Shown: in pieces, positions 25,501 through 34,104 of the stretch
Numbering within the stretch: the first letter of the stretch is position 1
Layout: the number at the start of each line of letters is the position of its first letter
From: Nitrosotalea sp.
GTDB taxonomy: Archaea; Thermoproteota; Nitrososphaeria; Nitrososphaerales; Nitrosopumilaceae
NCBI GenBank assembly: GCA_036278495.1
Contig: DASUKX010000013.1
Coordinates: 3,955 to 67,954, forward strand
Length of the DNA stretch: 64,000 bases
Reading direction: 5' to 3'
Position numbers and translations under genes: made by a program
Notes under the pieces: generated by a model
Database searches by the model: none
Told to the model about the DNA's origin: nothing
Seen by the model: only the letters and a program-made list of their open reading frames with translations

Positions 25501-25626
25501 AATGGCGTGACCCTGTATAGGCAAAAGCATTCTCTTGCCATTCGTACAAACACATTGTACTTGACTATGTACCGTTTTTCGCAGGGTCACGCAAATTCAT
25601 TTGTCATAATTTGCATCTTTCCGCAT
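25501..25626 (-). ncRNA. Candidate structured RNA with leaderless 9-codon ORF (element A)
   Basis: ORF MRKDANYDK* 25626-25597; 11-bp stem GCGTGACCCTG/CAGGGTCACGC (25592-25505) enclosing two hairpins; TTAAATA 22 nt upstream of ATG; paralogous to 33979-34104. Confidence 0.7.
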
Positions 25627-25771
25627 TGTTTCTTATACGATCTCATCTTATTTAATAATTAGTATGATTTATTGCATAAAATAATTTTAATTTGTATAAA
25701 TTATTGTTATTGTACTTATAAAATTTAGATTTTGTCTCACACTTTATGGAATTATCTGAAAAAACAACCAA

Positions 25772-26497
25772 CTAGGCATGCGATGATACCAAATCAACAA
25801 GTCCTGGAAGGGATTTTGCAGCACTTGTCCTCAAGGTCAGGTCCATTTCTTGTGACATGTGGGTCTGTTCCACATTTACCTCAACCAAAATGGCTCCATT
25901 TTGCTTGGCATATACAGGCAACAAATTTGCAGGAGATACTGCAAGCGAGGTTCCAACAACTATCATGACATCGCATGAACTTGCCTGTACCATTGCAGCC
26001 TCCCACACATCCTGTGGAAGAGCTTCTCCAAACCATACAACATCAGGTCGCAGTATGTTGCCACATTTGCAAAGAGGAGGAAGCTGCAAAAATCCAGATG
26101 TTATTTTATTTTTAAAATCACAAACAGTACACTTGATTGTAATTATGCTTCCATGCAATTCGTATACATTAGAGCTTCCGGCTCTCTGGTGAAGACCGTC
26201 AATGTTTTGTGTAAGAACTGAAACTGTCTTGTATTTTTCAAGCTCTGCAATGGATAAATGCCCAGGATTTGGACTAGCATTAAAAATATTTTGCCTTCTT
26301 TCCTCATACCATTCCCATACAAGTTTTGGATCTTCATAGAATGCATCTATTGTTGCCAATTTCATCGGATCATATTTTCTCCACAATCCATCTTTTCCGC
26401 GAAACGTTGGAATCCCACTCTCCTGGGAAATTCCAGCCCCTGTCACAAAAACAATCTTTTCTGAATTTTTCAAATCATCAGATATGGTATCCCACAT
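25772..26497 (-). CDS. cobB: Sir2-family NAD-dependent deacylase
   Basis: GAGISQESGIPTFRG, TQNIDGLH, ELHGS, RPDVVWFGE. Confidence 0.96.
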   Translation of the reverse strand: MWDTISDDLKNSEKIVFVTGAGISQESGIPTFRGKDGLWRKYDPMKLATIDAFYEDPKLVWEWYEERRQNIFNASPNPGHLSIAELEKYKTVSVLTQNIDGLHQRAGSSNVYELHGSIITIKCTVCDFKNKITSGFLQLPPLCKCGNILRPDVVWFGEALPQDVWEAAMVQASSCDVMIVVGTSLAVSPANLLPVYAKQNGAILVEVNVEQTHMSQEMDLTLRTSAAKSLPGLVDLVSSHA

Positions 26498-26501
26498 TTT
26501 T

Positions 26502-27401
26502 TCACTTGATCTCTATCTCTAAAAGATCCCTTGCAGCAGTGACGGAATCATGAACTGTCTTTGCTTCATTTACAAGCTCGTCTGTCTCTTCATATCTTGC
26601 AGAAAAGTGTGTCAAGATTAAATTCAAGACGCCTGCCTTTTTGGCAAGCTCTGCAGCTTCTTTTGCAGTGGAATGAAAATTCTCCTTTGCCTTGTCCCGT
26701 AATACATCAGAATATGTAGAATCAAATGTCATGTAATCGCATCCACTGAAAAACGCCTCAAGTTTTCCAGTAGGCCTTGTGTCCCCTGATATGCCAACCT
26801 TGATGCCTCTGCGTTTTTCTCCCATCACATCAGACGGCTTGACAACCTTACCGTTTACTATAATCTCCTTGTTACTTTGAAGCTCACTCCAGAGTTTTCC
26901 CTCTGGGATTCCGAGGGCTTTGGCTTTTTCTGGGTAAAACCTGCCTGGCCTGTCTTTTTCAGTAAAACGATACGAATAGGCTGGAATGGAATGCTCTGCC
27001 TCGCATACATGCACGTTGTATCCAGAATCGTCAAGGACCAGTCCCTCCTTTATTCTTGTTATCCTTACAGGAAACGTTAATCCAAAATTTAGTATCTTCA
27101 AGTTTGCCGCAATAAATTCCTCAATCCCTGTTGGGCCATAGATGTCAACTGATTCTGTCCTGTTCTGTAATGACATGGTCTGCAACAACCCTAGTATTCC
27201 TACACAATGGTCCCCATGCAAATGGGTCACAAAGATCTTGATCTTTTTGTTCCATCCAAGCTTTGCCTTTTGGAATGCAATCTGTGCGCCCTCTCCTGCA
27301 TCAAACATCAAAATTTCCCTGTCCAATACAAGACAGATGCATGTCATACCACGCTCTGCAGTTGGCTGCGCCGCAGATGTTCCCAAAAATACTAGTTTCA
27401 T
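26502..27401 (-). CDS. rnz: Ribonuclease Z
   Basis: [30 protein letters not shown]. Confidence 0.96.
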
Positions 27402-28324
27402 GATATCGCAATCACCCTTGTCAAGCTCTTGTGTCTGTAAATCTCGTATTTCTTTGCTTTGCTCATTTCATCCACTTCAAGACCTTTCTTGTATACCATT
27501 ACAAGTTTTTTTCTTTTTGGTACAATAGATACAAAGTCTCGGACTAGATTCTTTGGCAAGACAGATGACCTTGATGATATGCCATATGGCAAGTCAGTGA
27601 CAATTGCATCTGATTTTATGTTACACATCTCTTCAAAACCGGAATTTATCACCCTGGAATAAAACCCATTTGCATCAAGATTCTTTTTTGTTATTTTACA
27701 CATCATACCATCAAAATCAATTCCAACAGACTTGATTCCCATGGACTCGGCCTCTAGCAAAATCGTTCCAGTGCCACAAAAAGGATCACACAATGTCTTT
27801 CCCTCCTTTAACCCTGACAGGTTCACAAGACACCTGCTAAGCTTCATGTCAAGCTCATGCGGGTGTTTGATTATCTTTATTGGAAGTTTTGGCCTAACTT
27901 GGCGGTCTGAATATCCAAGATATTTTTTCGAATCTGTAATGATGAGGTATACAGTAACCTGCGGGTCTGCAAGTGAAACCTTTGAACCCCATTTTCTTGA
28001 GAGTATCCCGCCGGCTTGTCTTTCAAGTGCAGACGAGCCAATATTTTTTGATGACAGGTTTATCGTTCTGCAAACAAATGACGCAGGTTTTGGTATGGAA
28101 AAATCAATTTTTGTTATATCATCAAATGTTGTTACAATCTTTCCCGAGTATCTTGCAAATGTTGCCCTGTTTGCAATTTTGTACCATGGAATTTTGGATG
28201 ACACCATGACAAGTCTTGGCTCTGATGATATGGTACACCTGGAATCATAACTTTTTGATATTGAAATTATCTCGTCTCTTGCAAGGTCTTCGTATTGGCT
28301 TTGCAATACAAAAAAGCTTGACAT
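27398..28324 (-). CDS. THUMP-containing tRNA m2G10 methyltransferase-like (Trm11/TrmG10)
   Basis: [21 protein letters not shown]-like N-terminal half. Confidence 0.85.
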
Positions 28325-32720: not shown

Positions 32721-32935
32721 CCGCGTGTGGTAAGCTCAGGCTTGAGTGTCCAGGCAACTGCCATTGCAATAAATGGTACTGAGATCAAGGCAGCTATTTC
32801 GAGATAGGTTCGAAATTGTTCAGACTGCTGTGGGCTTGGATTTGACCATATGAAAGGTACAGGCAACGCAGAAGCAAACCAAATGATAGAAAGCATGATG
32901 ATTACCTTAAGTGCACTCTTCTTTTTTGGGGTCAC
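32717..32935 (-). CDS. Small two-TM membrane protein
   Basis: 72 aa with two hydrophobic helices. Confidence 0.65.
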   Translation of the reverse strand: MTPKKKSALKVIIMLSIIWFASALPVPFIWSNPSPQQSEQFRTYLEIAALISVPFIAMAVAWTLKPELTTRG

Positions 32936-33033
32936 GATATAACCTTAGGATTAGGTTCTATTAATTTTATTAGTATAATTATAAGGCTTTTCCCACATTT
33001 TCACGCCCATAATGTCCGATTAGGAGATGATAA

Positions 33034-33777
33034 TTATTTAGTAATGACACCGCCGTCTACAGGTAAAATCGCGCCTGTAATCCAGGATGAATCATCTGAA
33101 ACAAGATAAAGTATTGCCTTTGCAACATCTTCTGGCATTCCTATTCTTCCAATTGGATGTTCTGCTATTGCCATTGCTCTATCAACTTCATTTTCAAGAT
33201 ATGGCTTTGTCATGTCGGTTTCCACAATTCCGGGACAGACACAATTTACACGTATTTTATACTTGGCATATTCTATTGCCCATGCCTTTGTGAGCATAAT
33301 CAGTGCTGCCTTTGAAGCAGTATATCCGTCTGCTTCAAAATTTTCAAATGATTTCAGACCAGCATCTGATGACACATTTACGATGCAACCATTTGTTTTC
33401 ATCAAATGAGGTATTGCAGCCTTTGTAAAACGAAACTGTCCAGTTAAATTTATGTCAATTATGTCATTCCATTCTTCTTCAGAAATCTCATGCAGAGGTT
33501 TTACTTTGGGAAAAATACCTGCATTATTTACAAGGATATCAATTTTGCCAAAAATCTCTAAAGTATTTTTTACAACATTTTCTACATCTGTATTCTTTCT
33601 AATGTCACCAGAAATTGCTATTGTGTTTTTTATTTCCCTTGCAGTATTATCAAGACTTGCCTTGTCCTTTGATGTAATCACTACATTTGCTCCATGCTGT
33701 GCAAGTAGTATTGCTGTAGATTTTCCAATTCCTCTGCTGCCTCCTGTGACAATTGCAACCTTACCTGAAAGTTTCAT
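33034..33777 (-). CDS. Short-chain dehydrogenase/reductase (FabG-like)
   Basis: TGGSRGIG, NNAG, YTASK, VDGG. Confidence 0.93.
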   Translation of the reverse strand: MKLSGKVAIVTGGSRGIGKSTAILLAQHGANVVITSKDKASLDNTAREIKNTIAISGDIRKNTDVENVVKNTLEIFGKIDILVNNAGIFPKVKPLHEISEEEWNDIIDINLTGQFRFTKAAIPHLMKTNGCIVNVSSDAGLKSFENFEADGYTASKAALIMLTKAWAIEYAKYKIRVNCVCPGIVETDMTKPYLENEVDRAMAIAEHPIGRIGMPEDVAKAILYLVSDDSSWITGAILPVDGGVITK

Positions 33778-33978
33778 CCATTTCTGATTTAATCATGTGC
33801 CAGATTAGTTTGTCGAAGATCAAAAACTGAATTTATCAAAATCTTCAAAAAAACATGTTATGATGATCTGATGATCATAGTTTCTGCCTGTTTTTATTGA
33901 AATATTTTATTAAAATATTTTATAAACATGAAAAAATATGTATAAAATAATAAATACAATGATGTATTATAATTAATA

Positions 33979-34104
33979 ATGCAGAAAGATGTAAAATCTA
34001 CTGCTTAAGAGAGCGTGGCTCCGTAGACGTAAATTGTGAATCCCACTTGGGTGGGATTGGAAGAGGTAATCTCTGTTTGTCTACGAACAAGGGCCACGCC
34101 ATTA
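33979..34104 (+). ncRNA. Candidate structured RNA with leaderless 9-codon ORF (element B)
   Basis: ORF MQKDVKSTA* 33979-34008; stems GCGTGGCTC/GGGCCACGC and CGTAGAC/GTCTACG enclosing two hairpins; ATAAATA 22 nt upstream of ATG; paralogous to 25501-25626. Confidence 0.7.

Follow-up and report, generated by a model that had tools for sequence, protein, structure and literature searches.

Elements A and B, two short intergenic elements in a 64,000-nt stretch of Nitrosotalea sp. DNA (assembly GCA_036278495.1, contig DASUKX010000013.1, positions 3,955 to 67,954; here called the window), are, on comparison of their sequences, ancient paralogs of one uncataloged RNA family. Its members, of about 130 nt, share a layout in which a TATA box is followed after 22 nt by a start codon, 8 to 10 codons, a stop codon, a gap of 3 to 5 nt, and a covarying three-way-junction domain of 85 to 95 nt. 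The family is real and conserved, and its function is inferred from geometry. The short open reading frame (mini-ORF) very likely is translated for the act of translation rather than for its product, and we place a probability of roughly 45% on a reading in which the stand-alone RNA would load one ribosome that reads nine codons and terminates against the fold, where it would be held or slowed. A large part of nitrification in the sea, in fresh water, and in acid soils is due to Nitrosopumilaceae, whose RNA-level control is almost uncharted. With translation apparently kept, the peptide not kept, and the stop at a fixed distance from the fold, this would be a form of ribosome handling that fits no cataloged class.

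Architecture of the two elements

Element A, of the A subtype, spans 25483–25655 on the minus strand as a predicted unit of promoter, mini-ORF, folded domain, and U-rich tail. Its TATA box (TTAAATA, 25649–25655) lies 22 nt ahead of an ATG at 25626, and the leaderless nine-codon ORF (MRKDANYDK followed by TGA, 25597–25626) is separated by 4 nt from an 88-nt domain (25592–25505), after which the sequence reads CATTA. Within the domain, the closing stem P1 (5′ strand 25582–25592, 3′ strand 25505–25515; 4/11 pairs compensatory) encloses a junction strand that is conserved and largely unpaired (GAAAAA..ACAU(R)GU, 25564–25580), a variable hairpin P2 (25544–25560; 4/6 pairs compensatory), and a hairpin P3 (25520–25539; 3/8 pairs compensatory). 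A leader hairpin (25589–25616) formed by codons 4 to 9 together with the stop and the outermost 4 nucleotides of P1 is in competition with P1 closure, and a U-rich tract (25483–25494) is a probable terminator.

Element B represents the main subtype and occupies 33950–34110 on the plus strand. Its TATA box (ATAAATA, 33950–33956) is likewise 22 nt ahead of the ATG of a leaderless nine-codon ORF (MQKDVKSTA followed by TAA, 33979–34008), which itself forms a 5′ hairpin (33981–34004), and 4 nt separate the TAA from an 87-nt domain (34013–34099), again followed by CATTA. In B, a further helix, P1b, separates the closing stem from the junction; the 5′ strands of P1 (34013–34021) and P1b (34022–34028) together cover 34013–34028, and the corresponding 3′ strands of P1b (34079–34085) and P1 (34091–34099) fall within 34079–34099. 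Hairpin P2 (34039–34058) is variable in length and sequence, while P3 (34062–34074) bears the family motif GAG-GNAAU-CUC. Both domains fold more stably than shuffled sequences (z of −5.5 for A and −4.4 for B), with 0/200 shuffles folding equally well. In the 1.34-Mb Nitrosotalea assembly, which is 75% complete, neither the stem pattern nor the start pattern is present outside A and B.

When the sequence was re-read, every feature that an initial sequence-only reading had described for the two elements was found where it had been placed. The same reading held that each closing stem encloses two hairpins of different sequence; both hairpins are indeed present in each element, but the 3′ hairpins are related to one another (AGAG-AAUG-CUUU in A and AGAG-GUAAU-CUCU in B).

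Distribution of the RNA family

Covariance models linked A to B in both directions and found homologs across Nitrosopumilaceae. A model built from A orthologs only recovered B as the sole other match in the genome (E 2e-4), and a model built from 80 non-A copies, with no A-type member among them, found A at E 3.2e-9. Strong matches exist to B in 34/36 genomes of the genus and to A in 55/60; in 84/85 extracted loci the ATG lies 22 nt past AAATA under a pattern that permitted 21 to 23 nt, the remaining locus being cut by a contig end. A model of B alone matched 110/140 family genomes in 22/25 genera, 11 of 16 family genomes that it had missed were recovered by the 80-copy non-A model, and in an order-wide draw the latter model matched all 29 Nitrosopumilaceae genomes. 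The A subtype is also old, as the A model scores below E 1e-7 in 41/121 genomes searched, from five genera.

Outside the family, the same order-wide draw with the 80-copy model gave only six weak matches (E 0.067–0.48) in 122 genomes of 16 other families, and four such matches that were inspected had no TATA box, ORF, or P1. Model R2 matched 0/101 outside the family, and the 80-copy model (R3) found nothing under E 0.3 in 24 genomes outside it. The RNA thus appears restricted to one GTDB family, Nitrosopumilaceae, in the searches made; 22 to 85 candidates were scored per genome and the model searches were kept to order level, so distant relatives may escape. Some presence tallies include genomes flagged unpublished (G010, G011, G018, G027, G033, G153, and G168), while the alignments and models were made without them.

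A pattern describing the folded domain alone retrieved 119 GTDB loci from 20/64 parts of the collection. None bore a bacterial label, and all but three were labeled as Nitrosopumilus, Nitrosarchaeum, Nitrosotenuis, Nitrosotalea, Cenarchaeum, or unplaced thaumarchaeotes. The exceptions were labeled “Bathyarchaeota,” “Nitrososphaeraceae,” and “uncultured archaeon.” Of these, the first two have long flanks in common with DNA of the family. The “Bathyarchaeota” copy (L217, JARRMB010000107.1) was rejected as an outlying occurrence: its contig matches L212 at 93% identity over 2.5 kb and a Nitrosopumilaceae genome at 83% identity over 1.5 kb, and is probably mis-binned or mislabeled on this sequence evidence. 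Three patterns searched against viral DNA gave 0 matches in IMG/VR contigs.

Copies per genome numbered 2, 3, 3, 3, and 4 in five complete or near-complete genomes and one in other genomes. No credible match was obtained in three small genomes (0.8–0.9 Mb) of genus g26 and in 2/4 genomes of g32; the g26 genomes, together with the divergent g32 copies L324 and L325 described below, are candidates for natural loss of function. Two different copies may also lie 300 to 550 nt apart, in tandem in L171 (1500–1922) and L172 (1503–1920) and flanking one gene in L386 (1495–2281).

A covarying domain on the ORF strand

Among 37 A orthologs, 12/31 pairs have changed on both sides and 98.8% of alignment cells pair; 0/500 shuffles match this, and slid controls reach at most two pairs. 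For B (28 sequences), 5/30 pairs have changed on both sides. Across the 80 aligned copies, pairing holds in 98.3% of cells for P1 (6/9 pairs compensatory), in 93.0% for P1b (6/7), and in 93.8% for P3 with its GNAAU loop (2/5), whereas P2 is too variable to align (47%). Compensatory P1 changes both in the A orthologs and in the 80-copy alignment uphold the proposal that the closing stem covaries. The most strongly covarying columns (174 rows, effective number 72) belong to nested helices or are neighbors, with no clear crossing pair to indicate a pseudoknot. A U-rich tract follows within 25 nt in 196/242 copies.

Across the family, P1 contains 190 G-U pairs as against 7 A-C pairs, and the folded strand is therefore the ORF strand, as had been suggested from the G-U pairs of the two window copies. 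The same asymmetry bears on the idea that the elements are tRNA-like RNAs processed to a CCA end, or a DNA repeat of the miniature inverted-repeat transposable element (MITE) type, which we regard as highly improbable. Both window copies do read CACGCCA, there are several copies per genome, and A lies 1 to 4 kb from genes for RNase Z and a CCA-adding enzyme. However, CA follows the stem in only 94/242 copies, the apparent CCA being the last paired stem C plus CA, and ARAGORN and Rfam made no call, so the suggestion of a tRNA-like or CCA-ending RNA fails. A G-U-rich stem specific to one RNA strand is not what a DNA inverted repeat would leave, and divergent copies hold orthologous positions across genera, which speaks against a MITE; target-site duplications were not searched for. 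The A subtype outside Nitrosotalea lies between aroC and aroA. This alternative is already contradicted.

The initial reading had not recognized a known Rfam family, and a covariance-model scan with Rfam 15 agrees: at the gathering threshold only a tRNA-Pro was called in the window, nothing was called on the element in nine homolog loci, and up to E 10 over A and B nothing credible appeared, the best matches being far below threshold and either short or off-strand. A fragment of signal recognition particle RNA was considered and ruled out, as a full-length RF01857 match lies elsewhere in the genome. No description of the RNA was found in the literature searched, whose reach did not extend to subscription papers such as marine small-RNA surveys. 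One table entry, an ncRNA termed hypothetical that is 114 nt long, is carried on thaumarchaeal fosmid KF901103, and is credited with 72 start-site reads (Table S6, PMC5069720), could not, from what that entry gives, be matched to the RNA family.

Evidence for translation of the mini-ORF

An unbiased test of the ORF was made on copies picked by their 3′ domain alone, of which 116 from GTDB (3/119 unusable) and 109 from metagenomes (10/119 unusable) could be scored. A copy passed if an ATG, GTG, or TTG lay 20 to 23 nt past the best TATA match and the first in-frame stop fell 0 to 5 nt before P1. The test was passed by 111/116 GTDB loci and 101/109 metagenome loci, as compared to 7.8% of shuffled leaders and 0/87 and 1/87 in the two other frames. 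A single lineage accounts for 12 of the 13 failures; it has lost the ATG and has a TTG or GTG in frame at the next codon and an intact stop. An in-frame start and a stop before the stem are thus kept in 224/225 domain-only copies. Among 759 long ORFs of the genome, TATA-to-ATG distances of 21, 22, and 23 nt occur 5, 10, and 6 times, respectively, and every other distance at most 4 times. The 22-nt spacing of A and B coincides with this peak and so indicates leaderless geometry.

Selection on the frame was followed along a spanning tree for which nothing but domain and promoter was used (246 copies, 244 edges, of which 45 were dropped as too long and 5 had ORF length changes). Because the 246-copy set was pre-filtered for an intact ORF, its zero counts are partly by construction, and the domain-only sets are the unbiased test; with that limit, the remaining 194 edges held 34 stop-to-stop swaps and 448 internal substitutions, 0 of which created a stop as against 17.9 expected. 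Early stops were present in 0/180 leaders in frame versus 118/180 and 39/180 in the other frames. The start, ORF length, and spacing are kept in homologs in both the domain-only and the 246-copy sets. The stricter claim of exactly nine codons and exactly 4 nt describes the mode, with nine codons in 222/246 copies, but not the range, since 8 to 10 codons and gaps of 0 to 6 nt occur.

These patterns bear on the possibility that the RNA is never translated, with the ATG acting as an archaeal initiator element and the stop as a side effect of the leader hairpin. Archaeal start sites are known to carry ATG-like initiator motifs, codon choice tracks pairing in the hairpin while the peptide is unconstrained, and the near-identical, GC-rich, divergent copies L324 and L325 (genus g32, 1501–1623), whose P1 is reshaped, have no stop before the stem. 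Nevertheless, this alternative seems unlikely, as all three stops interchange and TGG is never seen in their place, indels within the ORF comprise whole codons whereas 1-nt indels are common directly after the stop, and the lost ATG is replaced by an in-frame TTG or GTG in 12/12 cases.

The peptide itself appears not to be what is kept. Single changes in the ORF comprise 40 synonymous and 176 nonsynonymous ones, a synonymous share of 18.5% versus about 26% expected at random; the most frequent changes fall at codon position 2; and 65 different peptides occur among 111 copies. By these comparisons the peptide is not under purifying selection, and the suggestion of a dual-function small RNA (sRNA) with a meaningful peptide finds no support. 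A nine-residue peptide as the product, as in classical dual-function RNAs, would agree with the tight ORF length and with the shared peptide flavor of ortholog groups, yet the substitution pattern and peptide diversity make it very unlikely.

The leader RNA also has structure. Main-type leaders form a weak hairpin (mean −6.8 kcal/mol; z below −1 in 150/155). The A-type hairpin, which spans codons 4 to 9, takes two to four outer P1 bases in 30/30 A-type leaders versus 26/155 main-type leaders, and its helix pairs in 98.4% of cells with one compensatory pair. It is a possible switch competing for the outer stem, although predicted folds of the full RNA favor closed P1.

The lineage with the shifted start has a 3-nt leader and is possibly a low-initiation variant (L194, L222, L246–L248, L254, L398, L408, L429, L432, L472, L498, and L513).

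Placement of the stop relative to the fold

The gap between the stop and P1 is 3, 4, or 5 nt in 236/246 copies, 0 in nine, and 6 in one. When the stop codon occupies the A site, P1 would therefore start at +10 to +12 from the P-site codon in 236/246 copies, and one codon earlier it would start at +13 to +15. The bacterial mRNA channel is reported to hold 11 nt downstream of +1, and stem-loops placed 11 to 12 nt from the P site to block A-site binding, a block that a 13-nt spacer relieves (PMC7282821). Fold contact would thus coincide with termination. Elongating archaeal footprints are given as 27 nt (PMC7261190), so only one ribosome should fit the ORF.

The most substantial competing explanation is an ordinary protein-binding or base-pairing sRNA, in which leader translation sets stability or folding and the stop merely spares the domain from unwinding. 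Multi-copy RNAs acting as protein sponges are known, and several paralogs per genome with different promoters and neighbors resemble them; conserved helix and loop sequence (GCAGAAC/GUUCUGC and GAG-GNAAU-CUC) would suit a protein site. A leaderless ORF on an archaeal regulatory RNA also has precedent in the 20-residue ORF of sRNA154 (PMC12612679). A protective stop, however, could sit anywhere upstream. Earlier stops should then be harmless, yet none is seen in frame, and when the ORF shortens to eight codons the 3- to 5-nt gap is kept (15/15), so it appears that the ribosome must stop there and not merely earlier. In addition, no unpaired seed common to the family was found, and no partner protein or target has been identified, no target search having been made. 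The sRNA explanation is accordingly doubtful, although it merits serious weight, and we infer selection for a ribosome that meets the fold as it terminates.

Proposed mechanism and points against it

In the reading that we favor, a single ribosome terminating against the fold, what the sequence itself displays is the promoter, the start and stop codons, the open frame between them, and the covarying domain. Transcription would begin at the start codon, as the spacing suggests, and the frame would be translated with the peptide as a by-product, as the pattern of selection suggests. Initiation would have to melt the weak leader hairpin, such that loading may report free ribosomes or initiation capacity. 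By the geometry, the terminating ribosome would then meet P1 and strain its invariant outer pairs, and the domain might, more speculatively, delay release or recycling, thereby parking the ribosome or switching the state of the RNA itself.

A more specific form of this reading is an RNA ribosome-parking device: a leaderless decoy that would load one idle ribosome, let it read nine codons, and lock it at termination, with paralogs deployed under different stresses and the A type carrying its own on/off hairpin. This form is speculative and on balance rather unlikely; if true, ribosome storage or termination control would for the first time be assigned to an RNA factor and not to a protein, in some of the ocean's most abundant cells.

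Several observations weigh against the reading of a ribosome terminating at the fold. Nine copies have the stop directly against P1, one copy among those failing the ORF test no longer has the stop, its frame continuing two codons into P1, and the stopless L324 and L325 also depart from the layout. The channel geometry used is bacterial, and the archaeal register may differ by a few bases; archaeal ribosomes have been reported to have a 3′ boundary 15 to 16 nt from the P site (PMC7261190). Copies are related by descent, so that counts are not independent events, and the partly built-in zero counts noted above add to this caution. A ribosome held by the RNA and an RNA changed by the ribosome fit the geometry alike. 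A search of sequencing runs with the B region returned 11 runs, nine with small shares, and four were compared to A: the single run recorded as RNA had no match on A, and two probable DNA runs yielded only contigs of relatives. The initial proposal of an independent RNA class in which a ribosome ends before a conserved fold is thus sustained as to the family, the leaderless ORF, and the fold, while transcription and translation are predicted. Among the roles suggested there, a ribosome sensor or decoy would suit the geometry best.

A protein combining CBS and HPF-like parts, with a C-terminal HPF/S30AE-like domain (e.g., L357:1453–2715), is encoded in 32/60 family genomes and was not found with the L357 query in genera g23, g28, g32, g34, g36, g38, and g39. 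We take this protein to be a probable HibA-type hibernation factor. Its presence led us to reject the RNA as a replacement for a hibernation factor; in genomes with both, the RNA fills no empty slot, a further point against the proposed reading that neither supports nor excludes parking.

Relation to known systems

The nearest architecture is CreT of H. hubeiense and H. hispanica, a small archaeal RNA in which a mini-ORF, leaderless and of six codons in H. hubeiense, precedes a stem-loop, and which acts by being translated and not via a peptide (PMC8501985). The CreT combination of a mini-ORF with an efficient start plus a downstream stem-loop is present in the family at the sequence level only. 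A CreT-like growth brake, in which a ribosome stalled at the fold ties up tRNA or peptidyl-tRNA, would share this outline, and the second codon is frequently a rare one (relative adaptiveness averaging 0.47 versus 0.78 for the genome). In contrast to CreT, the family has no tandem rare codons, the defining trait of that toxin: when rare codons are taken as the 12 rarest of the Nitrosotalea genome, two adjacent ones occur in 0/146 distinct ORFs, and tandem identical codons occur in only five. No CRISPR, cas, or antitoxin neighbor was seen within about 1.5 kb, creA itself not having been searched for. The stop, dispensable in CreT, is conserved here together with its spacing, a three-way-junction domain makes up the 3′ part, and the gene resides family-wide in 1 to 4 copies kept at orthologous sites. 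A growth brake of this kind is therefore quite unlikely.

In leader peptides such as those of hisL and ermC, ribosome position decides between competing hairpins, and in the A subtype the ribosome's location along the short ORF may likewise choose between hairpins. The trpL leader peptide is a further attenuator of this class (PMC12612679). In contrast to such attenuators, the RNA is followed by no regulated gene, and has no regulatory codon run and no terminator/antiterminator pair.

Transfer-messenger RNA (tmRNA) is a structured RNA with a frame of roughly ten codons ending in a stop. The family resembles it in joining a structured RNA to a short, stop-terminated frame but has no tRNA-like domain or CCA end, and its frame starts at the predicted 5′ end. 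Dual-function sRNAs (M. mazei sRNA154, SgrS/SgrT, and RNAIII) likewise combine a small ORF with a structured portion in one stand-alone short transcript, and sRNA154 has a leaderless ORF of 20 residues (PMC12612679). Their peptides are longer, conserved or functional, and accompanied by base-pairing targets, whereas here the 8 to 10 residues are unconstrained. The frameshift stimulator of dnaX is similar in placing a helix 11 to 12 nt from the P-site codon (PMC7282821), but that element lies inside an mRNA and alters decoding, while here a stop codon fills the A site and no coding sequence follows. The family provides a natural substrate for studies of archaeal leaderless initiation and termination, and cultured Nitrosopumilus and Nitrosotalea exist.

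Genomic neighborhoods

The next gene is convergent in 78/87 contexts, and on the same strand in eight (with unrelated genes), and one context lies at a contig end. The copies are thus separate genes and not leaders, with no downstream gene to control. Copies occupy orthologous positions across genera, and paralogs have different promoters and neighbors. The main ortholog usually converges on c0, a conserved gene of about 145 residues belonging to no known family (49 loci). The c0 product (e.g., L114:951–1487) has an N-terminal hydrophobic segment, with no Pfam family and no named relative found. In most genera the c0 stop, on the opposite strand, lies within a few bases of the RNA 3′ end, and c0 is missing beside B in Nitrosotalea.

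Within the window, A is flanked upstream by a co-oriented Sir2 deacylase gene and on the other side by a convergent gene that belongs to no known family, and B by a divergent short-chain dehydrogenase gene and a convergent TFB gene. A cluster around A (21625–28324) encodes the CCA-adding enzyme, an RNA 2′,3′-cyclic phosphodiesterase, RNase Z, and a TIGR01177-like methyltransferase. The proximity of A to genes for RNA-end and tRNA handling looks accidental, because in other genera the A subtype has its aroC–aroA location. A stand-alone protein at 31956–32720 has a weak match to Csa3 (CARF; E 3e-7, below cut-off), and no cas gene was noticed among the ORFs of 20000–40000. Marker motifs gave no match to a 16S gene in the 75%-complete Nitrosotalea assembly.

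A few paralogs (L140; L115/L120/L133/L139) precede co-oriented genes for superoxide dismutase or CorA by 31 to 100 nt, an arrangement in which read-through or effects in cis might occur. One paralog is divergent from a thermosome gene (L343 and L170) and in L343 converges on what is, by eye, a probable small heat-shock protein gene, neighbors that hint at stress-linked expression.

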